Assembly (NCBI GenBank): GCA_049459795.1
Contig: JBMUDS010000004.1
Location: forward strand, 12,890-36,889
Source of the DNA: Candidatus Nanopelagicaceae bacterium
Lineage (GTDB): Bacteria; Actinomycetota; Actinomycetes; Nanopelagicales; Nanopelagicaceae
Direction: 5' to 3'
Length of the DNA: 24,000 nt
Below are positions 1 through 23,772 of the stretch, piece after piece. A model generated the notes under the pieces. That model did not search any database. It saw nothing but the letters and a program-made list of their open reading frames with translations, and had not been told where the DNA came from. Position 1 is the first letter of the stretch. The number at the start of each line of letters is the position of its first letter. The position numbers and the translations under genes are program-made.

Positions 1-1071
1 GTCAGCAATGGAATAAGAAGAGACCAAGCCATCCTTTTCGCGATCCTCCGGAATGTGGGCTAGACCCGCCATATGAGCACGCTTAGGCTGCAGATTCGGT
101 AGTGGCTTTCCATCAACTAGGACTTGACCACTCATTCGAGCTCTCATCGAACAGATCGCTTCAACGAGTTCTCTCTGTCCATTTCCTTCGACGCCTGCAA
201 TCCCGAGAATCTCTCCAGAACGTACTTGTAAGGAGATTCCCTGTACGGCCTCCAATTTCCTGTCGTCCAAGACATGCAAATCTGTAATCTCCAGGGCAAC
301 GCTCTTCGGTGCAGCGACATCTTTTTGCACCTGGAGCACGACTTCTCTACCTACCATCATCTGAGCCAAGTCGGCCTCGTCGCTTTCCTTGGGAGTGGTG
401 GTGCCAGCTAGTTTTCCGCCCCGGAGAACGACAATTCGATCGGCTACGGCGATGACTTCCCGCAATTTATGAGTGATGAAGAGGATACCTACGCCACGAG
501 ATGCAAGATTTCGAAGCACCGTGAGTAACTCATCGGTCTCTTGCGGAGTCAAAACTGCCGTCGGTTCATCAAGGATCAGAAGGTCGACGTCCTTTCGCAA
601 CGCTTTAAGAATCTCCACGCGTTGAGCAGTTCCAACCGGGAGGTCTTCGACGATTGCGTCGGGATCCACCTCTAGTCCGTACTTTTCCACCAGGGAGATG
701 ACCTCATTGCGAGCACGCTTCATGCTGATGAAGCCTGCTCTTCGTGGCTCGTCACCAAGGATGATGTTCTCGGTCACACTCATCACTGGTACCAACTGAA
801 AATGCTGATGAACCATTCCGACGCCACGTTTGATGGCACTCGCTGTATCACCGAATTCGAGTGTCTCGCCCTTGATACGAATCTCACCGGAGTCTGGTCG
901 AACGAGACCGAAGACGGCCTTTACGAGAGTGGACTTTCCAGCGCCATTCTCACCAAGGAGAGCGACGATCTCACCGGCCTTGACATCAAGCGAGATAGAG
1001 TCGTTGGCTTTGACGGTGCCAAAGCTCTTAGTGATGTTCTTGATTTCCAGGAGTGAAGTCATGTCTTTCAT
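1..1071 (-). CDS. ABC transporter ATP-binding protein, tandem-ATPase type (nucleoside/sugar importer family); 3' end runs off the window
   Basis: My own translation of the minus strand from ATG at 1071 gives MKDMTSLLEIKNITKSFGTVKANDSISLDVKAGEIVALLGENGAGKSTL (Walker A), then LPVGTAQRVEILKAL (ABC signature-like) and LLILDEPTAVL (Walker B). A second ATPase domain then begins (LQVRSGEILGIAGVEGNGQ). The frame stays open to position 1 (357 codons). The start ATG overlaps the upstream permease stop as ATGA, with GGAG 5 nt upstream. This gene is missing from the supplied ORF track because no stop codon lies inside the window. Confidence 0.9.
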   Translation of the reverse strand, partial: MKDMTSLLEIKNITKSFGTVKANDSISLDVKAGEIVALLGENGAGKSTLVKAVFGLVRPDSGEIRIKGETLEFGDTASAIKRGVGMVHQHFQLVPVMSVTENIILGDEPRRAGFISMKRARNEVISLVEKYGLEVDPDAIVEDLPVGTAQRVEILKALRKDVDLLILDEPTAVLTPQETDELLTVLRNLASRGVGILFITHKLREVIAVADRIVVLRGGKLAGTTTPKESDEADLAQMMVGREVVLQVQKDVAAPKSVALEITDLHVLDDRKLEAVQGISLQVRSGEILGIAGVEGNGQRELVEAICSMRARMSGQVLVDGKPLPNLQPKRAHMAGLAHIPEDREKDGLVSSYSIAD

Positions 1072-2048
1072 GCTTTCTCCTTCTCGTATGGCTGTCCTTC
1101 AGCGGCTGGGGGCCTAACTTTGCCTGCAGCAACTGCAAGTACGACGATGGTAAGAACATAGGGGAGCATGTTGATGAATTGTTGAGGGATGTTGATCACT
1201 TCATCGATCATCAGCTGATTCGTAACCGCCTGGGCAAGGCCGAAGAAGATGGCAGCAGCAAATGCTCCAAGTGGGTTCCATCGTCCGAAGATCATGATTG
1301 CAAGGGCGGTGAAGCCTTTGCCTGCGGTAAAGCCTCGTTCGAAGATTCCGACCCACTCCAATGCCAAATAGGAACCAGCCAGTCCACCAACCGCACCGGC
1401 GATGGTCACATTGAGGTAGCGAAGCCTGGTTACCGATACGCCTGCAGTGTCTGCACTACTTGGATGCTCACCTACAGACCTGGAGCGGAGTCCCCAAGGA
1501 GTCTTATATAGCGCAAACCAAAGGGCAAAGATGAAGAAGATGCCGAAGTAGGTGATGGGTCCGTGGAAGTTGAGGATAGGGCCCACGACGGGGATGCCAG
1601 CAAGCCACGTGAGGTCGAATTGAGGGAGCGTCGTTGGAATGGAATAACCCTGGCGATAGAGGAAGGAGGTTAGGCCTGCTGCCAGAATATTGATGATGAC
1701 TCCTGCGATGATCTGATCCATCTTCCAAGTCACAGACATGAGAGCGAGTAGAAGTCCTACCACTACTCCAGTCAAGACACCCGCGATGAGTCCGACGACA
1801 GTGTCTTCGAAGATCGCGGCCACGAAGAAGGCGGTGAATGCGGAGACCAGCATCGTTCCTTCGATGCCAATGTTGACGATTCCTGTGCGTTCACAGAGGA
1901 CTCCCACCATGGCGGCCAGTGCAAGCGGAAGTGCTAAGGGAATAGCGCTGTAAACGACTGATGTAGTTACAAGATCATTCTGTGAGTAGAAATAGGCGAA
2001 GAGAGCAATCGAGAGAATAGTTACGATTTTTGAGGTTGAGAGTCGCAT
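1068..2048 (-). CDS. ABC transporter permease (BMP/nucleoside-type importer, second permease)
   Basis: 326-aa highly hydrophobic multi-pass protein. Its start overlaps the upstream permease stop (TAATG at 2046-2050) and its stop overlaps the ATPase start, so it is operonic with the SBP and ATPase. Confidence 0.85.
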   Translation of the reverse strand: MRLSTSKIVTILSIALFAYFYSQNDLVTTSVVYSAIPLALPLALAAMVGVLCERTGIVNIGIEGTMLVSAFTAFFVAAIFEDTVVGLIAGVLTGVVVGLLLALMSVTWKMDQIIAGVIINILAAGLTSFLYRQGYSIPTTLPQFDLTWLAGIPVVGPILNFHGPITYFGIFFIFALWFALYKTPWGLRSRSVGEHPSSADTAGVSVTRLRYLNVTIAGAVGGLAGSYLALEWVGIFERGFTAGKGFTALAIMIFGRWNPLGAFAAAIFFGLAQAVTNQLMIDEVINIPQQFINMLPYVLTIVVLAVAAGKVRPPAAEGQPYEKEKA

Positions 2049-3103
2049 TAGTTACCCCACCCGCTCGTCAAGGAGACACCGGACTCTTTTCGTCGAAGTA
2101 AACGCGCTAGAAGTGGAGCGCTGACGAAAAAGAGAATCATGGCCAAGAGCAAGTCAACGAGTTCTGGCGCGACACCTGCTTCGAATTGCATCGTTGATCC
2201 ACTTGCTCGCATGCCACCGATGAGGATCGCTGCCGGAATGACTCCCAATGGATTCGCTCGGGCGAGAAGTGCGACCGTGATCCCATCGAATCCGAGTCCA
2301 GCATTGAAAGCTGGCTCGAAACGACCAACGATACTTTGTGTCTCGATAGCTCCTGCGATTCCGGCGATTGCCCCGCCTGCAACCATTGCTGCGACGACAG
2401 TTAGTTTCACTGGGACGCCGGCATACCAGGCGGCGTTCTTGTTCTTTCCAACAGTTTCAATTCTGAAACCTGAGGTGGTGTTGCCAAGGAACCACCACAT
2501 TCCATAGGCGATTGCCACGGCGATGAAGAATCCGAATGGCAGTCCAAAGATGTCTGGGATTCGCGCCGTATCGGATATCGCAGGCGTTCTTGTCAGTGGC
2601 TGATCAGGTTCCTTAAATGGCCGGGATGCAAGAAAATCTGCGAGAGCGATCACAATGCTATTGAGCATGATTGTTGTGATGACTTCATGGACCCCGCGGT
2701 AGGCCTTGAGTGCCCCTGCAATGAATCCGACAAAAGCACCGAAGAATGCTCCGAAAAGAATGGCTACCGGAATGTGGATCAAAGTGGGTAGCTCAAGTGA
2801 GTAGCCGGCCCACGCTGAAGCCAAGGCACCGGATATGAGTTGACCTTGGGCGCCGATATTGAAAAGACCAGCACGTAATCCGATCGCAACTGCCAGGCCA
2901 CTAAGCACAAGTGGTGTCGCTTTGGCCAGAGTCGTTGCGATCCCGTCCCATGATCCGAAAGCAGTCGAGAAAAGCGCTGAATACGCAGTGAGAGGGTTGA
3001 TGCCCTGGACGTAAACCAGGATGGCTCCGAAGAAGAGCGCAACAACGATCGAAAGTAAGGGGACGGTAAAGGAACCTAGGTTTAATCGTGAAGTCCGCAC
3101 CAT
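2048..3103 (-). CDS. ABC transporter permease (BMP/nucleoside-type importer, first permease)
   Basis: 351-aa multi-pass membrane protein with GAGAAGG 5 nt upstream of the ATG at 3103. It is translationally coupled to the next permease. Confidence 0.85.
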   Translation of the reverse strand: MVRTSRLNLGSFTVPLLSIVVALFFGAILVYVQGINPLTAYSALFSTAFGSWDGIATTLAKATPLVLSGLAVAIGLRAGLFNIGAQGQLISGALASAWAGYSLELPTLIHIPVAILFGAFFGAFVGFIAGALKAYRGVHEVITTIMLNSIVIALADFLASRPFKEPDQPLTRTPAISDTARIPDIFGLPFGFFIAVAIAYGMWWFLGNTTSGFRIETVGKNKNAAWYAGVPVKLTVVAAMVAGGAIAGIAGAIETQSIVGRFEPAFNAGLGFDGITVALLARANPLGVIPAAILIGGMRASGSTMQFEAGVAPELVDLLLAMILFFVSAPLLARLLRRKESGVSLTSGWGN

Positions 3104-3170
3104 GTGTGCCTTCTCGCTCTCACGGTTTCGAAGAAAAGTTAAAGCCTTGAGTCCGAAAGAAGACTCTATG

Positions 3171-3210
3171 TCGAAAGGAGGAGGCGCCTTGTGACACCTC
3201 CTCCTTTCGA
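3171..3210 (-). terminator. Perfect 14-bp stem-loop between the SBP gene and the permease genes (partial terminator or mRNA-stabilising hairpin)
   Basis: tcgaaaggaggagg (3171-3184) pairs perfectly with cctcctcctttcga (3197-3210), with a 12-nt loop. It lies 34 nt downstream of the SBP stop on the minus strand and is followed by only an interrupted U-rich stretch. Confidence 0.5.
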
Positions 3211-3243
3211 TCCGCGATCAGGAATGACCGCATTTAGGTTTCG

Positions 3244-4275
3244 TTAGAGGGTGACTCCAGTTTTCACAGTACCTGCGAGAACTTTGGGAGTGATTGCCTT
3301 AACTTTCTTCTTCACCGAAGCAGGAATCTTCGACTTGAAAGCATGGTAAGGCGCCAAACCGACGTCACCAAAGACGTTTCCACCCTTGAAGCTGCCGTCC
3401 TTTGCCGACTTGATGATGTCACTTACACCCTTGTCAATGAGCTTCATCGCTGAGGTGACGAGACATGGTCGGGCTTCTGGCACGGTGTTCCACTGATCGG
3501 AGTCGACTCCAATGCAGTAAGCACCCTTCTTCTTCGCAATACGAAGAAGTGCTCCATTACCGGTGTTGCCACCAGCACCGAAGATCACGTCAAATCCTTG
3601 GGAGAGGAGTTGCTGTGCAGTTGCCGCACCCCAAGCAGGATCATTGAATGCATTGTCTGGAGCGTGATAGATCAAGCGAGTTGCTGGATATTTCTTCTTG
3701 AGCTCCTTAGCTGCATATGCAACACCATTTCGGTATCCCTCACCGAAGTAACGGACTGGTGGAACTGTGTCAGTTCCAAGCACTGCACCAGTCTTGCCAG
3801 TCTTGGTGAGATGACCAGCGAGATAGCCTGCAAGGAAGCCTGCCTTATCCTCAGGGAAGACCAAGCCTGCAAGGTTTGTTACTGCTGCACCTTGGAACTG
3901 GTCCACGCCGATGAACTTGACGTTGGGATATTGGTTTGCGGCAGTTGTGATGGCTTCTGCCATGAGGAAGCCGACGCCAATAACAATGTCGTATCCCTTA
4001 GTTGTGAACTGCGCGATGTTAGCGGCATAGTCTTTTGGATCGGTTGTTTCGATGTACTTCGCGAAACCACCAACTGCCTTTGCACCACGTTGAGCACCGG
4101 TCCATGCAGACTGGTTGAATGACTTGTCATCTACTTTTCCTGTGTCGGTGACAAGACCGATGCACATTACGGTGCCCTTTCCGCAATCTGCTTCTGTAGC
4201 TGCTTTCGAAGGTGCAGCAAAACCTAAGGTTGCAAGTGCAACTGCAGCCATTACAGCTGTAATGCGCTTGATCAT
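3244..4275 (-). CDS. BMP-family ABC transporter substrate-binding protein (PnrA/Med/NupN-like, probable nucleoside binding)
   Basis: Full-length resemblance to basic-membrane-protein family SBPs (LVTDTGKVDDKSFNQSAW..., GVGF, IGVDSDQ). I prefer the ATG at 4275 (MIKRITAVMAAVALATLGFAAPSKA signal peptide) because GAGAGGAGA lies directly upstream. The ORF-track start at 4338 adds 21 unlikely residues. Confidence 0.85.
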   Translation of the reverse strand: MIKRITAVMAAVALATLGFAAPSKAATEADCGKGTVMCIGLVTDTGKVDDKSFNQSAWTGAQRGAKAVGGFAKYIETTDPKDYAANIAQFTTKGYDIVIGVGFLMAEAITTAANQYPNVKFIGVDQFQGAAVTNLAGLVFPEDKAGFLAGYLAGHLTKTGKTGAVLGTDTVPPVRYFGEGYRNGVAYAAKELKKKYPATRLIYHAPDNAFNDPAWGAATAQQLLSQGFDVIFGAGGNTGNGALLRIAKKKGAYCIGVDSDQWNTVPEARPCLVTSAMKLIDKGVSDIIKSAKDGSFKGGNVFGDVGLAPYHAFKSKIPASVKKKVKAITPKVLAGTVKTGVTL

Positions 4276-4460
4276 GGATCTCCTCTCAAAGGTCCAAAAT
4301 TTCACTATGAAACTCAGGACTAACCGATCGATTAACAATCACGTTAGGGAAGGCTCCGGATGAACGGCGCGAATGATTGTGTGCGTGAATCCTAGGGTTG
4401 AGGGGTGAACTTTCTCATGCACGGCACATCACGGATTTATTACGGGAGCATATGAATTTT

Positions 4461-6036: not shown

Positions 6037-6969
6037 TTATGGGGATTTAGGTGGGCGGGCGCCGATAAGTTCGACACATCGCCCTGCGATCAGATTTCCA
6101 TTCTGAAGTGCTCGCGGCAGGTCACGATCCTTGATCCATGAGGCAATGAAACCCGCAGCGAAACTATCGCCAGCGCCGGTACTGTCGATGGGTTGGCGGC
6201 GCTCCTGTTTGTCCTCGGAGATGACACCAGAGGCGGAGTCGAAAGCCAGGGATCCCAAATCATTCCGCTTGATCACGATAGTAGATGCCAGTGGAGCAAG
6301 TTTTTCAAAGACCTGGTCGAGTTCATGTGAATGATCTTCCGCCAGATAACGTGCCTCCGATTCATTAAGCAGCATGACATCGCTTCGTGGCAATACTTTT
6401 AGGATCGTCTCACGATCTGCGAATGTAGACATCGTTCCTACCGATGCAGGATCGAAGAACGATGGAATCCCAGCGTCACGAAGGTGCGCGAATATCTCCA
6501 AGACTCCCTGGTGTGATCTCTTATTGAAGAGTGCATATCCGGAGATGTAGGCGGCCGAATAACCCTCGAGCGGTGGAAGGTCTCTGGCAGTCAGTCCCGC
6601 ATTAGCCCCTGAATCCGGGAACATGGTCCGTTCGCCACTCCTGTCGACGAGGACCACGACCGTTCCTGTAGATAGGTCTTTCACATCGCGACGATGGCAA
6701 TGGACTCCGAGCCCTTCAAGTTCATCGACCAGGGCGAGACCTACGGAGTCATTTCCAATCCGGCAGACCAGCTCCGGTTGAGCATCCGATGTCGCCAGCC
6801 ATGCCGCCACGTTCGCTGCGGCACCGCCGCCAGCCGTCACCACTTTGGATGGAGTATCGCTTCCATAGAGAAGTGTGGAGAAACCATCTCGACCACCATC
6901 GATATCGAGTTTCACGATGACATCGAGCGCGATATCACCAATGCAGAGCACGCGGTGGTTTTGTGTCAT
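6037..6969 (-). CDS. psuK: PfkB-family carbohydrate/nucleoside kinase, probable pseudouridine kinase
   Basis: PfkB signatures GGGAAN and DSTGAGDSFAAGF are present. It starts 2 nt after the psuG stop, matching the psuG-psuK pairing known from E. coli yeiN-yeiC. Substrate assignment is by context only. Confidence 0.65.
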   Translation of the reverse strand: MTQNHRVLCIGDIALDVIVKLDIDGGRDGFSTLLYGSDTPSKVVTAGGGAAANVAAWLATSDAQPELVCRIGNDSVGLALVDELEGLGVHCHRRDVKDLSTGTVVVLVDRSGERTMFPDSGANAGLTARDLPPLEGYSAAYISGYALFNKRSHQGVLEIFAHLRDAGIPSFFDPASVGTMSTFADRETILKVLPRSDVMLLNESEARYLAEDHSHELDQVFEKLAPLASTIVIKRNDLGSLAFDSASGVISEDKQERRQPIDSTGAGDSFAAGFIASWIKDRDLPRALQNGNLIAGRCVELIGARPPKSP

Positions 6970-6971
6970 TG

Positions 6972-7868
6972 TCAGTTACTCATCTTGCTATAACTGACGG
7001 CTATTCGGGCAGCAAGTCGTGCATTCTCCTTGATGATCAGAGTGTTGACCCGTAACGATTCGCCGTTACTGTTCCTGTGGAAGTACTCCAATAGAAAAGG
7101 TGTCACGCCCTTGCCGACGACGCCCTGGATCTCTGCCGCAGCGAGCCCCTTCTCCAAGAGATCATCATGGAGCTTGCGATCCATAGGTTCTGAAACAGGT
7201 TGGGCGACGATGAGGGCTGCGGCATGAGTGCGGCTGCACATGACATCTGCGATCGCTTCACCGCTCTCGAGACGATATTCCAACGGATACCCACTGTCTT
7301 GAAGGTAAAAACCTGGGAATCGGTCGGTCTGATAGCCAACGAGCGAGATGCCTAGAGTTTCAAGACGCTCGAGTGTTGCAGCGATATCGAGGATCGACTT
7401 CACTCCAGCGCAGACAACTGTGATCGGAGTCTGAGCAAGTTGCGTGAGGTCAGCCGATTCATCGAAACTTGTCGCGGCGCCTCGATGCACTCCGCCGAGA
7501 CCACCCGTGGCAAAAGTCGAGATCCCAGCCTTCCAGGCAAGGTATGAGGTCGATGCGACAGTTGTCGCTGCTGACTTCTTGGATGCGATCAACATTGGCA
7601 AATCGCGCGTGGATGCTTTCGTGATGTCATCACGTTCCGATAGCTCGATGAGTTGTCGATCACTCAATCCGATATGCACTCGGCCATCGAGGATTGCGAT
7701 CGTTGCGGGAACCGCTCCTTCCTCCCTGACGATCGATTCCACTTCTCGGGCGACATGCAAGTTGCTTGGACGAGGAAGACCGTGAGCGATGATCGTTGAT
7801 TCGAGTGCGACGACGGGCCTCCCTTCGCTGAGGGCGGCTTGGACTTCCGTCGAATTGATGAGATCCAT
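6972..7868 (-). CDS. psuG: Pseudouridine-5'-phosphate glycosidase
   Basis: The 298-aa protein has the typical N-terminus (VQAALSEGRPVVALESTIIAHGLPRP), ATIAILDGRVHIGL and TGGLGGVHRG, matching the PsuG/YeiN (indigoidine synthase A-like) family. Confidence 0.88.
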   Translation of the reverse strand: MDLINSTEVQAALSEGRPVVALESTIIAHGLPRPSNLHVAREVESIVREEGAVPATIAILDGRVHIGLSDRQLIELSERDDITKASTRDLPMLIASKKSAATTVASTSYLAWKAGISTFATGGLGGVHRGAATSFDESADLTQLAQTPITVVCAGVKSILDIAATLERLETLGISLVGYQTDRFPGFYLQDSGYPLEYRLESGEAIADVMCSRTHAAALIVAQPVSEPMDRKLHDDLLEKGLAAAEIQGVVGKGVTPFLLEYFHRNSNGESLRVNTLIIKENARLAARIAVSYSKMSN

Positions 7869-7888: not shown

Positions 7889-9061
7889 TTGTTTGATAGT
7901 GGAATTGATCTACCTGCTGTGAAGTGCTGGCAAGATAGCGATGTGAGCGAATCGCTGGGTCCTGCCGCGATCACTCGTTCCATCTTTGCCTCATTAGGAA
8001 CCGAAGAGAGCAATCCTCTTTCCATTCCGAGTTCGTCGGGCCCAGAAGTTCTACTCCTGGTCGACGGTTTCGGATCCTTCATCCTTGATGATTTCGCCGA
8101 CGCCGTTCCTGCTATTTCATCCGAGACAACGTCGTATCGATCCAATCTCGCTTCCCATTTCCCGACAACGACGGTCACGAATCTCACGAGTCTGGGGACA
8201 GGTGAGTTGCCGGGAATTCATGGCATGGTCGGCTACACCATGCGAATTCCCTTCGCGCAAGAAGGCACCCCGCAATTGCTCAATGGTCTGAAATGGGATC
8301 CTCGTATCGATCCAGTGACATGGCAACGACAACCCACGCTCTTCGAACGAGCAACCAAGCGCGGAATCCGAGTAAGTCACATCGCCTCACGAAGGTATGA
8401 AGGAAGCGGATTCACAGAAGCTGCCCTTCGGGGTGCTCATTACATTCCGGCGGCCAGCGACGAAGAGATCCTTGCGGGGCTGGAGATCGCAACTGGTCAA
8501 GGATCCTCATTCACCTATCTCTATCTCAATGATGTCGATGAAGCAGGGCATGGTCATGGCGTGGGAAGTGAGAAGTGGCGGGGGTCCCTTCAGCGAATCG
8601 ATGCACTCGTGGGGAAGATCGCGGCTGCGCTCCCGCGCGGCGGACGACTATGGATCACTGCCGATCACGGCATGGTCAATGTAGGGGAGAAGGTGATTCT
8701 CGGTGATGGGAATCAACTCCTCGAAGGTGTCGAACTACTTGGCGGTGAACCTCGAGCCCGGCACCTCTATCTCAAACGTGGTCTATCTGAGAATCTCCAT
8801 ACCGAAGAGTGCGAAAGAGTGATTACGCGATGGCGAGATTTCTTCGGCGATCGGATCATGATGATGCGCCCGAATGACGCCTACGGTGATGAGATCCATC
8901 CAGATCACAGAGAACGTATCGGTGATCTCATCGCTATCCCTACCGATGACACGGTCCTTATCGAAGCCGAGCGAGCAGAGATGCAATCACGGATGGTTGG
9001 ACATCATGGCGCTATGACTGAGATCGAGAGGATGATCCCACTTCGACTTCTAGAGAAGTAA
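7889..9061 (+). CDS. Alkaline-phosphatase superfamily protein, type I phosphodiesterase/nucleotide pyrophosphatase (NPP)-like
   Basis: Metal and nucleophile motifs are present: LLVDGFG, HFPTTTVTNLTSLGTG (Thr nucleophile region), DVDEAGHGHG and ITADHGM. The TTG start at 7889 is uncertain; an in-frame GTG at 7919 is an alternative. No obvious signal peptide. Confidence 0.75.
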   Translation: MFDSGIDLPAVKCWQDSDVSESLGPAAITRSIFASLGTEESNPLSIPSSSGPEVLLLVDGFGSFILDDFADAVPAISSETTSYRSNLASHFPTTTVTNLTSLGTGELPGIHGMVGYTMRIPFAQEGTPQLLNGLKWDPRIDPVTWQRQPTLFERATKRGIRVSHIASRRYEGSGFTEAALRGAHYIPAASDEEILAGLEIATGQGSSFTYLYLNDVDEAGHGHGVGSEKWRGSLQRIDALVGKIAAALPRGGRLWITADHGMVNVGEKVILGDGNQLLEGVELLGGEPRARHLYLKRGLSENLHTEECERVITRWRDFFGDRIMMMRPNDAYGDEIHPDHRERIGDLIAIPTDDTVLIEAERAEMQSRMVGHHGAMTEIERMIPLRLLEK

Positions 9062-9083
9062 TCTGCGAAGCAGTCAGACCAGA

Positions 9084-10301
9084 TCAGAACTCTGTGCGAA
9101 GCGAACGAGTTAAGAGCACGACTAACGCTGTCCCGCTCAAGATGGTCGCAAGGACGATGTAGGTCCCACCGACGCCGAATTCCTCAACCGCCCATCCTGA
9201 CAAGATCATGCCGAGTGGTGGTGCGGCATAGAAAGTAGCCAATTGCACTCCGAAGACCCGCCCTTGTTCATTCTCTTGTATCCGCTCTTGGATCAGCGAC
9301 GTGATCAATGGATTGAAAGGTCCCCAAAATAGCCCGAGTGCGAATGCACTGATCGAGAGGATGACCATGGGTGGAAGTAGAGCCATGGGAAGAATGCTGA
9401 TCGCTGTACCGATCATGATGATGCGGACCAAGGTACGTCGCCTGATCCGCTTCATGAGTGATCCATAGCCAAAAGCGCCGAGCGTCGATCCAGCGGCCAA
9501 TAAGGAGATGACGATCCCTAACTCTGTAGGTGCATTCTTCGCTTCGAAGTAGGTCGGCAGGATGATCGCCTCAGTCGGAAGATAGACGGCTGCAATGATG
9601 AGGATCGAGATGGTGATGGTTCTAAGCAGACGATCCCGCCAAAGTGCGATGAAGCCGCGAGCAAGTCCTTTGGAGAATGAAGTCGCGGAGTCAGCACCAT
9701 CGATCAGTTCAGTAGAAGTGCGTTCGCTCACTTTGAGCAGTGCGATAGCGAGCGAAGAGAAGATGAAGAGTCCACCTGCGGCCCAGAACGAATTGATGAC
9801 ACCGAATCCGGCGATCAACCAGGCACCTAGCGCCGGACCTGCGACCCATCCGATCCCAAAGATGCCTTCATGGATTCCGTTCAATTGATTCTGATCGATA
9901 CCTGTCGCACGTGAGGCATCGACGAGCAGCGTCTTTCGCGCTGTATATCCGGCTGGGTCGAAGAGTGCTCCAAAGATGGCCAGGAGAAGAATCGTGAGAT
10001 TCTCCAAGCCGATCCAGTAGTAGAAGAGAGGGAATGCGAAGACGGAGAGTGCGGATAGAAGATCTGAGACGATGCTGACGAAACGTCGACCCGTATGGTC
10101 AATGATCCAGCCTGCAACAGGAGAGATGATCAACGGCGGAAGAGATGCCAATGCGACGACGACACCGGCAAAGAGTGGCGAATCTGCTTCTTTGAGAATG
10201 AGCCACGGAATTGCGATGGTGACCATCGCATTGCCGAGGCCTGAAGCAAGATTGGCGCTTTGAAGCAACACGGCAGGAAGCAACCGCCGCTTTGCATCCA
10301 T
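9084..10301 (-). CDS. MFS transporter (12-TM, MFS_3/enterobactin-exporter-like architecture)
   Basis: 405-aa polytopic protein whose N-terminal half resembles MFS efflux proteins (GNAMVTIAIPWLIL..., PVAGWIIDHTGRR loop 2-3 motif). It begins 33 bp downstream of the heliorhodopsin stop on the same strand. Confidence 0.8.
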   Translation of the reverse strand: MDAKRRLLPAVLLQSANLASGLGNAMVTIAIPWLILKEADSPLFAGVVVALASLPPLIISPVAGWIIDHTGRRFVSIVSDLLSALSVFAFPLFYYWIGLENLTILLLAIFGALFDPAGYTARKTLLVDASRATGIDQNQLNGIHEGIFGIGWVAGPALGAWLIAGFGVINSFWAAGGLFIFSSLAIALLKVSERTSTELIDGADSATSFSKGLARGFIALWRDRLLRTITISILIIAAVYLPTEAIILPTYFEAKNAPTELGIVISLLAAGSTLGAFGYGSLMKRIRRRTLVRIIMIGTAISILPMALLPPMVILSISAFALGLFWGPFNPLITSLIQERIQENEQGRVFGVQLATFYAAPPLGMILSGWAVEEFGVGGTYIVLATILSGTALVVLLTRSLRTEF

Positions 10302-10334
10302 AGGTGGACGCTACCGCTTAGAAGTTGATGGTTG

Positions 10335-11120
10335 CTAAATTGCGCTCGTCGCTAAGACGCCGCCGAATATCTGCCACGCCAGCGCACTTTTTGCGATGAA
10401 TGAGAGTGTGATGTAGAGACGTTCGCCCACGAGGTAATCGGCGAATCGCCCGATCCGCTTGTATTGCAGCCATTGGACGATGGCGAAGGAATTGAAGAAT
10501 ATGAACAGCGAGAAGACGACACCATAGACAAAGCCCGGTGCTTCTCCGCTTCCGCCGGGCGAGAAGAGCAACCAGAACATCGCTATCCAGGGAATGATGC
10601 CTGCGATACATCCAAACCAGAATGGCAATAGACCACCTTTTCCTGGTTCTTCGTACTTCTCCTGCAACCAGCCAAAGAGGATCATCGCCACATTGACTCC
10701 GGCGATTGCGATCAATGCAATCACATCCCACACCGCATTGATGAGCGAGATCAAGACGATCATGAGAGTCGACGAGATGGAATACTCGATCCATCGAGCG
10801 ATATTCCGCTGGTTTCGCAGATCGTTACCGTAAGTTTTGAAACCAGGGCCGACGATCCAGAAATGAGCGAGAGCGCTCAACAGGGAAAATGTGGCCACAC
10901 CGAGTGCCACCGGGAAGTCGAAGAGGGTGACGCTCTCGAATTCAGCACCTGGAACGGGCGCATCTTTGAGGTAGTTGACCGAAACCGGAAGTGCGAAGTC
11001 ATTGGCAAGGAGAAGGATCGCCACGCCTTGGATCAAGTGGAAGATTCCTGCGATCAGGTTGTAGCGGCGAAGCCCAGCGAGACGCTCTGCCGGGATCGTG
11101 AGTGGAACTGCAGCCGCCAT
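10335..11120 (-). CDS. Heliorhodopsin (7TM retinal-binding photoreceptor, inverted topology family)
   Basis: 261 aa with 7 hydrophobic helices. It is collinear with my recollection of heliorhodopsin 48C12: YNLIAGIFHLIQ, LANDFALP, NIARWIEYSISSTLMIVLIS, AMILFGWLQEKY, LLPFWFGCIAGIIPWI, PGFVYGVVFSLFIFFNSFAIVQWLQYK, GERLYITLSFIAKSALAWQIF. The Schiff-base Lys K244 (codon 10389-10391), counterion Glu E112 (10785-10787), His28 and His86 are all present. Confidence 0.93.
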   Translation of the reverse strand: MAAAVPLTIPAERLAGLRRYNLIAGIFHLIQGVAILLLANDFALPVSVNYLKDAPVPGAEFESVTLFDFPVALGVATFSLLSALAHFWIVGPGFKTYGNDLRNQRNIARWIEYSISSTLMIVLISLINAVWDVIALIAIAGVNVAMILFGWLQEKYEEPGKGGLLPFWFGCIAGIIPWIAMFWLLFSPGGSGEAPGFVYGVVFSLFIFFNSFAIVQWLQYKRIGRFADYLVGERLYITLSFIAKSALAWQIFGGVLATSAI

Positions 11121-11125
11121 GATTA

Positions 11126-11131
11126 CTCCTT
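11126..11131 (-). promoter_or_regulatory. Shine-Dalgarno (AAGGAG) for the heliorhodopsin gene
   Basis: Minus-strand AAGGAG lies 5 nt upstream of the ATG at 11120. Confidence 0.6.
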
Positions 11132-11173
11132 GATCTAACTATCAATTGCTTACGAGAAGCAACGAGATCACGT

Positions 11174-12058
11174 TTACTTCTCGGGTCCCTGGTTCTCCTT
11201 GCGGGTACCAAACATGATGTCATCCCATGATGGAATGGAGACTTTTCGCTTGACTCCGTCACGACGTGCGTCAGAAGGAATCTCTACATCGAGTTCAAGT
11301 TCATCAGAGAGTTCCTGATCCAGATCGAGGTTACCTTCATCGACTACCTGACTCTTCTCATCAAGGTCGGCAGTGTCATCGAGATACTCATCGATCGATG
11401 CAACAGTCGGAGTGCTTCTGATCGAGATCAAACGGGGAGGCGCTTCCTCGCTACGTATCGGACGAACCACAGCTTCGATGGGAGCCGGTTCCTCATCCAT
11501 GATCCACCTGGCGCCATCATCATCGCTCTCGATCCGACGTTTCGTACTCTCGAACCGCCACGTCGCATTTCCTTTTCCGTCACGGGTCGGATACTCGAGC
11601 AGGATCTGCCATGTGCCGTCTTCGTTGCGGTATGCATTCCACTCGCAATTCTTCATATCGACGCCACGAGGAGAGAGTTTGGCCTCAACTACCTCATTGA
11701 GAGTCGACTTCAACTTCTTGATCTCGGCCTTTTGTGCGAGCGAGATGATGTAGGAGCGCTCTTGGAGGATCGGATGCGAGTACCGCTCGATCTTCTCCAT
11801 GGAGACTCGGCCATTCTCGGAGATGCTCTCCATGCTTTCGCCAGCACGGAGTCGTGCTTGGAGTTCCTTGATCGAGATCTCAGTGGTGGGTTCATTCGCG
11901 ACTGATCTGAGCGGCGTAGGAGATGGCTGATTGATCAAACTTCGCAAGTAGTCATTGATGCGAAGCTGATAGGAATTGCCATCGAGGTCGTGGAGTTCCA
12001 GTGAATCTCCATCTTCGCTCCGCCCAACTGTGCGGAGGTCTTTCTGTTGCTCGCTCAT
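11174..12058 (-). CDS. sepH: Septation protein SepH (DUF3071 family, actinobacterial FtsZ-associated)
   Basis: The N-terminus MSEQQKDLRTVGRSEDGDSLELHDLDGNSYQLRINDYLRSLI matches the DUF3071 pattern. An acidic low-complexity linker follows, then the conserved C-terminal RKVSIPSWDDIMFG motif. The ORF-track version (to 12424) runs antisense through the divergent IMPase gene and is rejected. In-frame ATGs at 12076 and 12082 are alternative starts. Confidence 0.8.
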   Translation of the reverse strand: MSEQQKDLRTVGRSEDGDSLELHDLDGNSYQLRINDYLRSLINQPSPTPLRSVANEPTTEISIKELQARLRAGESMESISENGRVSMEKIERYSHPILQERSYIISLAQKAEIKKLKSTLNEVVEAKLSPRGVDMKNCEWNAYRNEDGTWQILLEYPTRDGKGNATWRFESTKRRIESDDDGARWIMDEEPAPIEAVVRPIRSEEAPPRLISIRSTPTVASIDEYLDDTADLDEKSQVVDEGNLDLDQELSDELELDVEIPSDARRDGVKRKVSIPSWDDIMFGTRKENQGPEK

Positions 12059-12134
12059 CAGAGCCAAGATTGCCATAAGCATCCCGGGATTAGGGTGAGG
12101 CAGCGGGTCGGAATTCGAGTGCTCCCCTTGAAAT

Positions 12135-12938
12135 GTGCGAGAGAATGAAGGTGTGGAGCAACATTCGAAACTTCTTGACCTCGCGCTAAGAGTCAGCACT
12201 GAGGCAGGAAGGTTCCTCTCGAAACGACCAGCGAACTTCGATATCGAGAGCAAGTCGACCGTGATCGATATCGCCACGCAGATGGATCGAGAGGCAGAGT
12301 CGATGATCGTCGATGCGATCCTCAGCGAGAGAGGCGATGACGGCATCATCGGAGAAGAAGGTGCGTCGCGCCCGAGCAGGTCGGGTTTCACCTGGGTCAT
12401 CGATCCACTGGATGGCACAGTCAACTATCTCTACGACCTCCCGGGATGGTGTGTATCGGTGGCCTGCAAGGACCCATCGGGCACCGTTGTCGGCGTCGTG
12501 TATGCGCCGACTCTCAATCTTGATTCGAATTCTGAGGTGATCTGGTCAGCTATGCGTGGCGGTGGTGCATTTAGGAATGGAAGAGCCATTCGCGTCAGTG
12601 ATGAGAGTGAGATTGAAGGCGCGCTGATCGGTACGGGTTTCGCGTACTCCATGGAAGTTCGCAAGAGCCAAGTACGTGTGATCAACGATCTCCTTCCCCG
12701 ATGCCGAGATATCAGACGGATGGGAGCCGCAGCAGTCGATCTCTGTCACGTTGCCTCAGGCGCGCTCGATGCATATTTCGAAGTCGGTTTGAAGGAATGG
12801 GATAAGGCTGCAGGAGCATTGATCATCACAGAGGCAGGTGGTGTGGTCTCGGGCGGTGAAAGTGAGAGTTCACGTTTTGTCGCAGCCAACCCAGGTCTTC
12901 ACGAACGGCTGAAGGAGTTCTTGTCCGACTACGTATGA
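12135..12938 (+). CDS. Inositol monophosphatase family protein (SuhB/ImpA/HisN-like)
   Basis: Family motifs GIIGEEG, WVIDPLDGTVNY and KEWDKAAGALI are present. The start is GTG at 12135, with an alternative GTG at 12153. Exact substrate cannot be called. Confidence 0.85.
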   Translation: MRENEGVEQHSKLLDLALRVSTEAGRFLSKRPANFDIESKSTVIDIATQMDREAESMIVDAILSERGDDGIIGEEGASRPSRSGFTWVIDPLDGTVNYLYDLPGWCVSVACKDPSGTVVGVVYAPTLNLDSNSEVIWSAMRGGGAFRNGRAIRVSDESEIEGALIGTGFAYSMEVRKSQVRVINDLLPRCRDIRRMGAAAVDLCHVASGALDAYFEVGLKEWDKAAGALIITEAGGVVSGGESESSRFVAANPGLHERLKEFLSDYV

Positions 12939-20947: not shown

Positions 20948-22171
20948 ATGGTGAGCCGGAATAAACCGCTTGGAATCGTCCTTGCTGGTGGCGAAGGTAA
21001 GCGATTGATGCCGCTCACTGCTGACCGTGCGAAACCTGCGGTTCCCTTCGGTGGCTCTTACCGACTCGTTGATTTCGTACTTTCGAATCTCGTCAATGCT
21101 GGCATGACTCGCATCGCAGTTTTGACGCAGTACAAGTCACACTCGCTCGATCGCCACATCACCACGACTTGGCGGCTCTCCTCACTCCTTGGAAATTACA
21201 TAACGCCTGTTCCGGCACAACAGCGTCTTGGCCCTCGGTGGTATACCGGAAGTGCCGACGCGATCTTGCAGAATTTCAATCTCATCCAAGACGAACGCCC
21301 CGAACACGTACTTGTCTTCGGAGCGGATCACGTATATCGAATGGATCCCGACCAGATGTATCGAGAGCATCGTGAGAGCGGCGCCGGTGTCACGGTGGCC
21401 GCTATACGAGTACGACGTTCTGAAGCCCATGAATTCGGCGTGATCGAATTGGCTGAGGATGGTGTGACGATCAAGGCATTCCACGAGAAGCCTTCCGATC
21501 CTCCTGCGATGCCGGGAAACCAGGAGTATTCCTTAGTCTCAATGGGTAACTACATCTTCCGACGCGATGCGATGGAAGAAGCGCTCCTAGCCGATGCGGC
21601 TGACCCCGAGAGTCGACACGACCTCGGTGCCAACATCATCCCGATGATGACGAGACAAGGTCGCGCACGCGCATACGACTTCGCGCATAACCGAGTGCCA
21701 GGCGAGACCGATCGTGATCGTGGCTACTGGCGGGATGTCGGGACGATCGACGCTTATTACGAAGCACATATGGATCTCGTCTCGGTCCACCCGATCTTCA
21801 ATCTTTACAACGATGAGTGGCCATTACTGACGAACCCTCCGTCATTGCCGCCGGTCAAATTCTCGAATTATGGATCCGCACAAGAATCGATCGTCGGCGC
21901 GGGATCCATCATCGCTGGCGGGACGCTCTTCCAAAGTGTCGCTTCCTATGATGTGCAGCTAGGTCAAGGCTCTAGGGTCGAAGGCACTGTAGTCATGCCT
22001 TCGGTTCGGATCGGCGCGCATGCCCAGATCCGGAATGCCATTCTCGACAAGAATGTGGTCATCGATGAGGGCGCAACAATCGGCTTCGACCCAGAGCGTG
22101 ATCGGGAGAGGTTCACTGTCTCTGAAAATGGGATCGTGGTGGTCGGAAAAGGCGTACGAGTAACGCGCTAG
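20948..22171 (+). CDS. glgC: Glucose-1-phosphate adenylyltransferase
   Basis: [48 protein letters not shown] and a C-terminal left-handed beta-helix region are present. Confidence 0.93.
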
Positions 22172-23772
22172 AGCTTTCCGAGCGAGAGTCTCTCCAAGAC
22201 CTCTTCTGCACGTACCTTCAATTGGTCGAGATCCTTCAACCGATCCAATCCGCGAACCTGCTGTGCGATTCGATGGTTTCGCTTGAATTCCTCTCGATTC
22301 CGATCAAGGAAATCCCAGTAGAGAGTCGTGAAGGGACATGAATCAGGTTCGCTTCTCGTCTTGGGGTCGAAGACACACCCCTTGCAATAGTTCGACATTC
22401 GCGAGATGTAGGCACCGCCCGCTGCATAGGGCTTCGTCATCATCCGCCCACCATCTGCATGGACCCCCATGCCGATGACATTAGGAACCATCACCCAGTC
22501 ATACGCGTCGATGAAGACTTCGGACATCCAATCAAGAAACTCCTCAGGTTCAATGGCTGCAAGAAGTGCAAGATTCGATAGCACCATAAGGCGTGGGATG
22601 TGATGAACCCAGGACCTCTCACGAATGTCGGTGACGATTCCACGGACACATGACATCTCGGTCTTCTCCGGTTCGTGGAACAAGGGGAGGAGCGATCGGT
22701 GTGCGTTCAACTGGTTCTCGTGTCGATATCGCTCACCGAAGTACCAATAGATTCCATGGACATATTCCCGCCATCCGATGATCTGTCGGACGAAGCCTTC
22801 GATGGAGGAAAGAGGAACATCGCCTGCCTCGAATCTCTCGATCGCTCCATCGAGCACTTCTTGAGGGTGAAGGAGTCCATTGTTGAGATACGGACTAAGA
22901 AGCGAATGATGAACCTGCCAACTCTCTTCTGACCGGGGCATGGCATCTTCGAGTGGTCCAAAGCCCGTCAGGTGGTGATCAAGGAAGTGTTGGAGTTGTC
23001 GCAGCGCACCGGTACGAGTGGTCGCCCAGGTTCCCGTCGGGTCATCGCCCCAAAGATTCGGGAAGTTCGCTCGCAATTCCGAGAGCACCTCTTGATCGAT
23101 CTCATCGCGGTGGTGCTCGAGATACGGCGGCCACTGATATCCCTTGGGAGGTGGCAGGCGATTCTCATGATCGAGATTCCATGCGCCACCAAGGGGTTGG
23201 TTTCCATCCATCAAGATATTGAGACGGGTTCGTTGCGCTCGATAGAAGTTCTCCATCAGTAGCGACTTCTTAGAAGTGGCCCACTCGGCGAAGACTTCAC
23301 GCGGAGTGAGGAAGAGATCCGATGCGGTGATCTCGAATCCGCACTCTCGAAGTGTGCGATTCAATCGGATCGAGGCCGGCTGCATGGCAATCCTCGAGGC
23401 GCCTTTTGAATTCGGGAAGAGGGAATCGATTTCTGAAAATGCGCTTTCGAAGCTCTCTGATTTCAAGTAGCGAACTCGATATCCAGACTCTACGAGGGAG
23501 AGAGCAAAGTGTCGTGCTGAGGCGATGAGAAAGAAGATGCGCTGAATATGCCACCGCTTGCCACGTAGTTTCTCATGATTTTCGACGAAGACGATGAGAT
23601 CTCGATCCTTATCAGCATCGCGGATGATCGAACTTCGAAGCCAGAGCTGATCGAATGCAATGAAGCGGATCGCCTGGATGTGATCATCGCAACCTTCGCA
23701 AGGCAGGCTCTCCATGAATGGCATGACCCTAACGCTAGACTGCTCCCGTCGAAGATGACTAGTTGATTCCAT
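22168..23772 (-). CDS. Cryptochrome/photolyase-family protein of the Fe-S bacterial type (FeS-BCP / CryPro; probable (6-4) photolyase or CryB-like)
   Basis: It shows a COG3046-like photolyase-related architecture. Four Cys (C375, C463, C466, C479 in ORF numbering) have spacing C-x87-C-x2-C-x12-C. That is the same spacing as the [4Fe-4S] ligands I recall for PhrB/CryB. The start is uncertain: ATG at 23772 leaves only 21 bp to the divergent pfk gene, so in-frame ATGs at 23724 or 23715 may be used. Confidence 0.82.

Follow-up and report, generated by a model that had tools for sequence, protein, structure and literature searches.

A heliorhodopsin gene between sepH and a Tap-like MFS gene in a Nanopelagicaceae bacterium: family identity, gene neighborhood, and candidate partners

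The cellular role of heliorhodopsins (HeRs) is unsettled, and a locus that defines the partner of an HeR is therefore valuable. Regulation of a partner protein has been described for three HeRs: AbHeR from Actinobacteria bacterium IMCC26103 acts on glutamine synthetase (GS) (PMC9529153), TfHeR from Trichococcus flocculiformis enhances photolyase (PMC9769723), and OcHeR from Ornithinimicrobium cerasi acts on the ABC exporter OmrDE (PMC11109279). These three interactions were all published by closely related author groups. In its nadE-glnA-HeR operon the AbHeR gene comes third, and K216, K217, and K220 of the protein are required for GS binding, which is of weak affinity (Kd 6–100 µM; PMC9529153). 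HeR 48C12, which originates from a freshwater actinobacterial fosmid and has been solved structurally (PDB 6su3, 6su4, 6uh3, and 9ljj), does not pump ions (PMC9529153), whereas a viral HeR, V2HeR3, transports protons (PMC9448325). In addition, residues of the lateral fenestration have been proposed as a carotenoid-binding site (preprint 10.1101/2025.11.27.691015). HeR has been reported in all cultivated isolates of Nanopelagicales (PMC12817590).

Here we analyzed an HeR gene and its surroundings in a 24-kb stretch of DNA, the whole of which is referred to as the window. The product (designated as the window HeR) is related to 48C12 and AbHeR, and its gene is flanked by sepH on the 5' side and by an MFS gene on the 3' side. 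This locus does not define a partner. It does, however, contribute to a context map of HeR genes in Nanopelagicales, in which GS, TerC, DPRP, TrkH, VKOR/GSDH, and SepH/MFS neighborhoods track HeR phylogeny, and it adds a Tap-like MFS as a previously unlisted class of HeR neighbor.

Family identity and topology of the window HeR

The 261-aa ORF is real (Table 1), and we regard it as virtually certain that it encodes an HeR. The initial annotation had assigned it to this family and suggested a profile-HMM comparison, which gave a full-length match to Pfam PF18761 (Heliorhodopsin; 309.5 bits, E = 1.8e-92, profile positions 1–242 of 242, cut-off 26.7). The HeR equivalog of NCBIfam, NF038020, was matched at 306.6 bits (positions 1–244 of 244, cut-off 100), and both curated cut-offs were thus exceeded. 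The 48C12 structures 6su3 and 6uh3 were matched with E values of about 5e-84. Heliorhodopsin was the sole Pfam family at E ≤ 1, the type-1 rhodopsin family (Bac_rhodopsin) giving no match, and the PDB matches at E ≤ 1 were exclusively HeRs. On these grounds we rejected assignment to the type-1 rhodopsins or to a different 7TM family, and the annotation had likewise set the protein apart from type-1 rhodopsins. The sequence blocks that it had quoted (YNLIAGIFHLIQ, LANDFALP, NIARWIEYSISS, ILFGWLQEKY, LLPFWFGCIAGIIPWI, PGFVYGVVFSLFIFFNSFAIVQWLQYK, and GERLYITLSFIAKSALAWQIF) are all present in the translation, as are R13, R18, R19, H28, H86, E112, and K244.

The window HeR is 57% identical to 48C12 over 243 aligned residues. 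The solved chain of 48C12 aligns near-gaplessly with residues 13–257, the gaps being a 2-residue indel and a 1-residue offset in ECL1, one residue at the end of TM2, and two residues in ECL3. H23, H80, E107, S237, and K241 of 48C12 align exactly with H28, H86, E112, S240, and K244, which bears out the reading of the lysine, the glutamate, and the two histidines as family residues. E112, H28, and H86 are invariant across 30 close homologs. N101, W105, Y108, S112, N138, M141, W163, F206, Q213, and W246 of 48C12 are likewise kept, and the residues of the retinal pocket are identical in the two proteins.

Table 1. Positions of the features discussed, numbered from the first nucleotide of the window
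Feature	Position	Strand	Basis
HeR CDS	10335..11120	minus	ORF, 261 codons and TAG stop
Shine-Dalgarno sequence AAGGAG, 5 nt 5' of the HeR ATG	11126..11131	minus	direct sequence reading
K244 codon, retinal Schiff-base Lys (48C12 K241)	10389..10391	minus	48C12 alignment, codons checked
S240 codon, completes the SxxxK motif with K244 (48C12 S237)	10401-10403	minus	48C12 alignment, codons checked
E112 codon, Schiff-base counterion (48C12 E107)	10785..10787	minus	48C12 alignment, codons checked
H28 codon (48C12 H23)	11037..11039	minus	48C12 alignment, codons checked
H86 codon, second conserved His (48C12 H80)	10863-10865	minus	48C12 alignment, codons checked
ICL3 basic cluster K221-R222-I-G-R225, equivalent of AbHeR K216/K217/K220	10446..10460	minus	L086 alignment, codons checked
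MFS gene, 405 aa, MFS_3/DHA3 type, 33 nt 3' of the HeR stop	9084..10301	minus	PF07690, PF05977
TAGCGT (TANNNT, -10-like), 6 nt 5' of the MFS ATG	10308..10313	minus	sequence reading
sepH (septation protein, DUF3071), ends 53 nt 5' of the HeR start	11174..12058	minus	PF11268
DPRP gene (photolyase-related), about 11 kb and 11 large ORFs from HeR	22168-23772		PF04244

The hydropathy segments agree with seven TM helices, and the alignment with 48C12 indicates the seven-TM fold with a long ECL1 beta-hairpin. An AF2 prediction gave seven long helices and a two-strand element (residues 47–48 and 64–65); its three-dimensional model was of low confidence (mean pLDDT 50.4, pTM 0.39), the input being a shallow alignment of 30 sequences with homologs 79–98% identical. 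When the cytoplasmic and extracellular loops were assigned by homology to 48C12, 12 Lys and Arg residues fell in the N-terminus and ICL1–3 versus one in ECL1–3 and the C-terminus. An inverted, N-in topology, as the initial annotation had proposed, is predicted from this charge distribution.

Taken together, the protein is very probably a canonical, functional-looking HeR of a freshwater Nanopelagicaceae-type actinobacterium, with the signature of the full-length fold. By analogy with the characterized relatives 48C12, TaHeR, AbHeR, TfHeR, and OcHeR, it would bind all-trans retinal, absorb green light (about 550 nm), undergo a slow photocycle, and pump no ions. A role as an energy or transport photoprotein, either harvesting light through a xanthophyll antenna taken up from outside or conducting protons as V2HeR3 does, is highly improbable. 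F206, N207, and A210 of the 48C12 fenestration are conserved as F209, N210, and A213, together with an identical FWFGCIAG segment, in which the counterparts of the Cv06 Phe, Cys, and Gly were placed by inspection; these residues are those of the site proposed for carotenoid binding. However, the antenna proposal comes from an unreviewed preprint that names no use for the harvested energy, V2HeR3 is a member of a remote viral subgroup, and 48C12, with its identical pocket residues, is established not to pump ions. Families of carotenoid or retinal biosynthesis and type-1 rhodopsins are not represented among the 20 large ORFs of the window, consistent with the earlier remark that crt and blh genes are absent there.

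Host, gene neighborhood, and its conservation

NCBI MAGs already include a protein identical to the window HeR, named "heliorhodopsin HeR [Candidatus Nanopelagicaceae bacterium]", and about 8000 homologs were found. MAGs of Nanopelagicaceae/Nanopelagicales are the closest genomes, and all related loci come from Actinomycetota. A monoderm host is indicated by these loci, by the MAG naming, and by the neighboring sepH, which is specific to actinobacteria. The window HeR, a light-sensing retinal membrane protein whose host is an abundant freshwater actinobacterium, is genuine, typical, and already annotated, and its clade is the one that has been sampled most heavily among HeRs. The initial annotation had given this locus its top interest weight, a ranking that we do not retain: the exact protein has been deposited under the name HeR, and the freshwater actinobacterial clade to which it belongs is very large and well sampled.

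The sepH product matches the SepH equivalog NF040712 at 186 bits (cut-off 40); gene callers choose its 294–302-aa form. The spacer between sepH and the HeR gene is 13–59 nt in the clade's six genomes where the sequence is readable, that is, the window and five relatives, and is shortest in L090 (13 nt), where it is too short for a promoter. The HeR gene has its own Shine-Dalgarno sequence, and a GGAG-type motif lies at the equivalent position in the related loci L013, L017, L089, L090, and L091. The two genes are probably co-transcribed. These features would fit an HeR that works with the upstream SepH and couples cell division to light, which we consider extremely unlikely. The sepH-HeR arrangement is restricted to one clade, SepH is a core actinobacterial protein whose gene has many unrelated neighbors, and it diverges quickly (64% identity, versus 87% for HeR), unlike a tightly co-evolving pair. 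No literature linking HeR with SepH or DUF3071 was found in the searchable library.

On the other side of the HeR gene, the nearest family of the MFS protein is the multidrug efflux family Tap (NF052575), matched over the full length at 267 bits, which is below the 625-bit cut-off; TIGR00900 was matched at 202 bits. No Shine-Dalgarno sequence precedes the MFS ATG. The TAGCGT hexamer at this place is possibly a promoter of a leaderless transcript: TA(G/A)CGT-N6-start also precedes the MFS gene in L013, L017, and L089 and is missing from L090 and L091. A consensus scan of positions 8900–12600 detected no sigma-70-like sites, such a scan being uninformative for an actinobacterium. The same region contained two terminator-like sites, both intragenic and at the frequency of shuffled sequence, and the HeR-MFS spacer contained none. 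Rfam and tRNA scans of the 24-kb window gave no matches. Apart from a Bmp/PnrA-type uptake system (1068–4338), which lies 6 kb from the HeR gene, the window contains no ABC system. We also considered a horizontally acquired island around the HeR gene and rejected it; GC content is flat over the window (0.49–0.56), and the entire block is collinear in related genomes.

The order sepH-HeR-MFS is limited to a single clade of genus level, whose members have a collinear 12-gene block from RNase HII to a ParC-like gene. Identities between the window and L013 were 87% for HeR, 88% for L19, 76% for InositolP, 74% for MFS, and 64% for SepH. HeR is as conserved as the ribosomal protein L19 and is thus under strong constraint. 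Its location, in contrast to its sequence, is fluid. HeRs at 57–89% identity occupy at least six distinct neighborhoods that track HeR phylogeny, sister HeRs adjoining VKOR/GSDH, a photolyase-like gene, TrkH, TerC, or glutamine synthetase. A trio of fasciclin, VKOR, and GSDH genes follows the HeR gene in 18 other genomes. In the tree, the 57–60% relatives form the Planktophila/GS-linked group, and the window HeR falls in the VKOR/GSDH-SepH/MFS radiation.

The MFS protein is a candidate partner by virtue of its gene order. By analogy with OcHeR, the HeR could act as a light-dependent modulator of this adjacent Tap-like (DHA3-type) transporter, with which it would be co-made and associated in the membrane, and thereby alter the efflux of drugs or metabolites; we regard this as unlikely. 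HeR and MFS share one strand, their spacer lacks terminator-like sites, and its length stays within 33–50 nt in six genomes, in which HeR identity falls to 84% and that of MFS to 67%. The affinity of the MFS protein to Tap and the published regulation of a multidrug exporter by an HeR (PMC11109279) point in the same direction, and MFS relatives at 62% identity adjoin the fasciclin-VKOR-GSDH trio, which hints at an older association of HeR and MFS with one region. However, the adjacency occurs in one clade and is attributable to vertical inheritance of the collinear 12-gene block. HeRs 79–87% identical to the window protein have no MFS neighbor, and MFS relatives at 57–62% identity occur in four different contexts without an HeR neighbor; in the 9.9 kb read around one such relative outside the clade (P0106/P0177 contig), no adjacent HeR was present. 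The TANNNT element 6 nt before the start, combined with the missing Shine-Dalgarno sequence, suggests an independent leaderless MFS transcript. Furthermore, MFS is absent from the ten recurrent classes of HeR neighbors in a survey of 448 HeRs, and literature on HeR with MFS, efflux, SepH, or DUF3071 consisted of incidental co-mentions and the known ABC-exporter paper. The narrower proposal that HeR was recruited in this genus-level lineage to put a proton-coupled, Tap-like MFS efflux pump under light control, possibly with SepH expressed alongside, is quite doubtful. If true, it would be the first rhodopsin regulating a secondary transporter and would place a second, mechanistically different transporter class beside the single published case of an HeR and an ABC exporter.

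Cytoplasmic face and candidate partners encoded elsewhere

We compared six HeRs from SepH/MFS contexts with 18 from VKOR/GSDH contexts. No position combined a fixed residue in the former with a different residue in 80% or more of the latter, and accordingly no HeR residue specific to the MFS context was identified. Identity of the cytoplasmic face between the two contexts was 80%, versus 83% overall. Such a comparison is blind to partner binding through conserved surfaces. ICL2 is 83–100% identical across all groups, with 'QEKYEEPGKGG' being nearly invariant.

With moderate confidence, and by analogy with the described systems, we favor a non-pumping photoregulator that acts via protein partners. 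Most likely, the window HeR would serve as a photosensor in which light alters the cytoplasmic face (ICL2 and the basic ICL3), and the altered face would directly bind, and so modulate, at least one partner protein. The gene order does not appear to specify the partner, and any single named protein is an unlikely choice when taken by itself. The initial annotation had described the partner as not known, which was fair, and the synteny comparisons gave no answer. The ribosomal-protein-like conservation and the fluid location point to a conserved, unlinked partner or to a function independent of neighbors. Because HeR is conserved to the level of L19 and its cytoplasmic face is independent of context, a conserved protein encoded elsewhere is a likelier partner than the adjacent MFS.

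Among unlinked proteins, GS is the best-documented candidate in Nanopelagicales. Binding and light activation of a GS encoded elsewhere, which would couple nitrogen assimilation to light, is rather unlikely for the window HeR. Its relatedness to AbHeR (L086) is in favor of this, and so is the finding that HeR immediately follows NadE-GlnA in 20 of 21 loci assigned to the AbHeR clade group. All three positions required for GS binding in AbHeR (PMC9529153) are basic in the window HeR, unlike in the DPRP, TrkH, and TerC groups, where the middle one is Glu or Gln, and ICL2 is almost invariant between groups. On the other hand, basic residues in ICL3 are also expected from the positive-inside rule and are conserved family-wide, so K221, R222, and R225 are shared with the AbHeR group but common across HeRs and not specific to it. 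ICL1 and the N-terminus are 36–37% identical to those of GS-group HeRs, the affinity of AbHeR for GS is weak, and the GS arrangement is restricted to the clade of 57–62% identity. Directly 5' of the window HeR gene lies sepH instead of glnA or nadE, and no GS gene occurs in the 24-kb window, so there is no linkage within it.

The TfHeR precedent would suggest, again by analogy, that the HeR assists the photolyase-type DPRP protein, as TfHeR enhances photolyase. Photolyase is a recognized class of HeR neighbor with experimental support (PMC9769723). In L029, L031, and L033 (HeR 79% identical), DPRP directly follows HeR in the same orientation, and in L042 (HeR 73% identical) it directly precedes HeR; these are the four loci in which the adjacency was found. 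The DPRP of the window shares 55% identity with that of L033 across the full length. In the window, however, some 11 kb with 11 large ORFs separate the two genes, and HeRs of the E group have KEVGRWKD in ICL3, versus KRIGRFAD in the window HeR. To our knowledge, PF04244 proteins are not the photolyase class that was tested with TfHeR. Assistance of DPRP is very unlikely.

Comparison with known heliorhodopsin systems

Among the characterized HeRs, TaHeR from a Thermoplasmatales archaeon (PDB 6is6 and 7clj) is of the same family and is matched over its full length (E = 6e-48); it is archaeal, much more distant, and uninformative on partners. In the TfHeR-photolyase system, relatives of the window HeR with 73–79% identity adjoin DPRP, whereas the window has an ortholog of that gene, 55% identical, which is not adjacent. 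OcHeR-OmrDE resembles the present locus in that an actinobacterial HeR gene has, in the same orientation, a neighbor encoding a putative multidrug efflux transporter (PMC11109279). However, the transporter in O. cerasi is a heterodimeric ABC exporter that is encoded in the operon and up-regulated, while the neighbor here is a secondary, Tap-like MFS whose linkage to HeR is lineage-restricted and which may have its own promoter.

AbHeR comes from the same order, Nanopelagicales, and is 58% identical to the window HeR; the two have near-identical ICL2 loops, and at the three basic ICL3 positions required for GS binding the window HeR has Lys, Arg, and Arg. They differ in gene order, with nadE-glnA preceding HeR in the one case and sepH and MFS flanking it, with GS absent from the window, in the other. 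The window HeR and 48C12 belong to different sub-clades and differ in ECL1, ICL1, and the N-terminus, but they are collinear over their full length, and both come from freshwater actinobacteria.

Identity of the heliorhodopsin

The heliorhodopsin (HeR) gene is preceded by a strong Shine-Dalgarno sequence, AAGGAG, located 5 nt upstream of its ATG, as read from the sequence. All blocks and residues on which the initial annotation had based its assignment were found in the translation, and the heliorhodopsin identity was confirmed by Pfam, NCBIfam, and PDB matches. PF18761 (Heliorhodopsin) matched the product end to end (309.5 bits, E = 1.8e-92), and no other family was found in the Pfam search at E <= 1. 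The NCBIfam equivalog 'heliorhodopsin HeR' scored 306.6 bits (cut-off 100), and all six PDB matches were heliorhodopsins, led by structures of the crystallized prototype 48C12 (6su3, 6uh3, and 9ljj, E ~5e-84) and followed by the archaeal TaHeR (6is6, 6e-48).

Residue positions were transferred through a HMMER alignment to 48C12 (57% identity over 243 aligned residues). The equivalences claimed earlier hold: the Schiff base lysine K244, the counterion E112, and the histidines H28 and H86 align with 48C12 K241, E107, H23, and H80, respectively, and S240 corresponds to S237. N101, W105, Y108, S112, N138, M141, W163, F206, Q213, and W246 of 48C12 are matched by identical residues. The lateral fenestration/carotenoid site residues named in a 2025 preprint (48C12 F206, N207, and A210 plus the counterparts of Cv06 Phe, Cys, and Gly; 10.1101/2025.11.27.691015) are all kept, the Cv06 counterparts being placed by inspection in the FWFGCIAG segment. 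When the 48C12 topology is applied, the loops carry 12 Lys+Arg on the cytoplasmic side versus one outside, in agreement with the inverted N-in topology proposed previously. AlphaFold2 run from a shallow alignment predicted seven long helices, with a short hairpin within extracellular loop 1, but this model was set aside because its pLDDT was only 50. Taken together, these results show a canonical HeR whose chromophore site is intact and whose predicted topology is N-in.

By analogy with characterized relatives, this HeR would bind all-trans retinal, absorb green light, and cycle slowly without pumping, and it would likely pass the light signal on, via its conserved cytoplasmic face, to one partner protein or several. 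We consider this generic model of a non-pumping HeR relaying light to partners reasonably probable, and an antenna or transport role (PMC9448325) very doubtful.

Gene content of the window

Genes of the window in plus-strand order
Order	Gene or product	Position	Strand
1	Bmp/PnrA-type ABC uptake system		
2	GyrA/ParC-like protein, 505 aa	4489-6006	-
3-4	PfkB kinase, then IndA-family protein (Pfam Indigoidine_A)	6037-7868	-
5	Type-I phosphodiesterase		opposite to 3-4
6	MFS transporter	9084-10301	-
7	HeR, 261 codons (ORF reading)	10335-11120	-
8	sepH	11174-12058	-
9	Inositol monophosphatase	12135-12938	+
10-12	L19, signal peptidase, RNase HII		
13-15	YifB/ComM, DprA, Era-type GTPase with KH domain		
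16-18	EamA, GT4 glycosyltransferase, nucleotidyltransferase		
19	Photolyase-related protein (DPRP), 534 aa, PF04244 (photolyase/cryptochrome-related)	22168-23772	-

No carotenoid, retinal, or type-1 rhodopsin genes are present within the window; its gene annotation thus bears out the reported absence of carotenoid/retinal biosynthesis genes. The GyrA/ParC-like protein consists of the DNA_topoisoIV domain alone, lacks the C-terminal beta-pinwheel domain, and covers positions 2-476 of the 738-position NF004044 model. The short form is not a frameshift product, because the next gene is only 150 nt away; a product of approximately 506 aa is likewise called in the related genomes L089-L091, and this streamlined lineage may be characterized by a type II topoisomerase A subunit devoid of this domain. 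The adjacent Indigoidine_A and PfkB genes, which we take to be the usual pseudouridine-catabolism pair of PsuG glycosidase and PsuK kinase, are kept in the collinear block, adjoining the phosphodiesterase gene. An upstream TTG would extend the sepH frame to 416 aa (11174-12424, -), but gene callers in eight identical contigs pick 294-302 aa; the short form, starting with the ATG at 12058, is more plausible because the longer reading would run into the divergent gene for inositol monophosphatase.

Neighborhoods and candidate partners

To survey gene contexts, the window neighbor proteins were mapped onto 80 species-level loci, flanking ORFs were clustered, and recurrent clusters were annotated. 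At least six contexts were found among the loci examined; L089-L091 were located through the MFS transporter.

Contexts of HeR genes (L-numbers, related loci)
Context	Arrangement	Occurrence	HeR identity to window
A	sepH-HeR-MFS	window's species, L013, L017, L089-L091	84-100%
B	nadE-glnA-HeR-leuA-recO-uppS	includes strain IMCC26103	57-62%
C	amine oxidase, cyclase, TerC, HeR, NmrA/DUF2867		68-71%
D	HeR, then VKOR/GSDH/fasciclin in varying order	18 genomes	75-87%
E	HeR-DPRP		73-79%
F	HeR-TrkH		80-82%

In a neighbor-joining tree, the contexts coincide with HeR clades, and five of the six context-A proteins are monophyletic, nested within the context-D radiation. Genes for membrane transport or ion homeostasis (TrkH, TerC, SbtA-like, cytosine/purine permease, and MFS) recur directly beside HeR in several independent contexts, e.g., L019, L020, and L065 (HeR-TrkH) and L043-L063 (TerC(-)-HeR).

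The sepH, HeR, and MFS genes run in the same direction with spacers of 53 nt (sepH-HeR) and 33 nt (HeR-MFS), and no terminator-like hairpin lies between them in the window. The MFS protein most resembles the Tap multidrug efflux family (a full-length match at 267 bits, under the equivalog cut-off) and the TIGR00900 H+-antiporter subfamily. The adjacent transporter is an unlikely HeR partner, and light-gated efflux through it is quite unlikely. HeR is still adjacent to MFS orthologs at 81, 74, and 67% identity; however, these loci are collinear with the window over all 12 genes, RNase HII through the ParC-like gene, and vertical inheritance therefore explains the kept adjacency. Relatives at 62% identity lie in Germane(-)-MFS-fasciclin(-)-VKOR-GSDH(-) and those at 57-60% in two further contexts, all without HeR. 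The 62% relatives (L092, 3649-7473; L098, 2668-6491) are directly upstream of the fasciclin/VKOR/GSDH trio, a slot held by HeR in 18 other species-level genomes (L011, L015, L016, L022, and others). This thin evidence hints that HeR and MFS formerly occupied the same variable region, with one or the other gene in place.

No Shine-Dalgarno sequence precedes the window MFS gene. TAGCGT (TANNNT) is located exactly 6 nt before its ATG, within 10302-10313 (-), a geometry typical of actinobacterial leaderless-mRNA promoters. L013, L017, and L089 share the TA(G/A)CGT-6 nt-start arrangement, with the remaining spacer diverged, whereas L090 and L091 lack it. TAGCGT is a possible separate promoter, judged from sequence; if it is real, the MFS gene would be expressed, in part or wholly, independently of HeR. 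Comparison of the HeR proteins gave no position that is invariant in context A and carries another residue in 80% or more of context D. The cytoplasmic face is 80% identical to context D, about the level of the whole protein (83%), and intracellular loop (ICL) 2 is 83-100% identical to that of the window HeR across all context groups. Between the window and L013, HeR (87%) equals ribosomal protein L19 (88%) in conservation, whereas MFS (74%) and SepH (64%) evolve faster. The ortholog contexts, the possible separate promoter, the lack of a HeR signature, and the constraint on HeR speak against the neighboring MFS being a partner specifically co-adapted to HeR, and these tests give no positive sign that the sepH-HeR-MFS arrangement is functional.

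Other candidates were weighed as receivers of the relayed signal. Glutamine synthetase (GS) is a somewhat improbable partner. In AbHeR from strain IMCC26103, ICL3 residues K216, K217, and K220 are required for GS binding (PMC9529153). The window HeR has K221, R222, and R225 at these positions, unlike contexts C, E, and F, in which the middle position is E or Q. No GS gene was found within the window. For DPRP, a very unlikely partner, an ortholog is immediately downstream of HeR in L029, L031, and L033, and the full-length window protein shares 55% identity with that of L033, yet its gene is 11 kb from HeR in the window. SepH is an extremely improbable partner: in L090 a gap of only 13 nt separates the end of sepH from HeR, so co-transcription is likely in the clade, but nothing tying HeR to SepH was found in the literature searched.

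Comparison with known heliorhodopsins

An identical protein, named 'MAG: heliorhodopsin HeR [Candidatus Nanopelagicaceae bacterium]' at NCBI, is encoded on at least 13 contigs (NCBI, JGI, ENA, and Logan). A word-index homology search yielded 7979 relatives at significant scores, the best 120 all being at least 79% identical. Among GTDB contigs with one genome per species, 189 stretches encode a relative, and Nanopelagicales or unclassified freshwater Actinomycetota account for the vast majority of the 80 examined. Every cultivated Nanopelagicales isolate in a 2025 study is reported to have one actinorhodopsin and one heliorhodopsin (PMC12817590), and a HeR gene is therefore expected in a genome of this order. 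The analysis confirms the observation and supports its interpretation, but the feature is an ordinary one that was known before. Published neighbor classes are recovered in contexts B, C, D, and E, namely GS and NAD synthetase, TerC, GSDH, and photolyase (PMC11109279, PMC8612252). MFS is missing from the ten recurrent neighbor classes in a survey of 448 HeRs, and the lineage-restricted sepH-HeR-MFS(Tap-like) arrangement is the sole new element.
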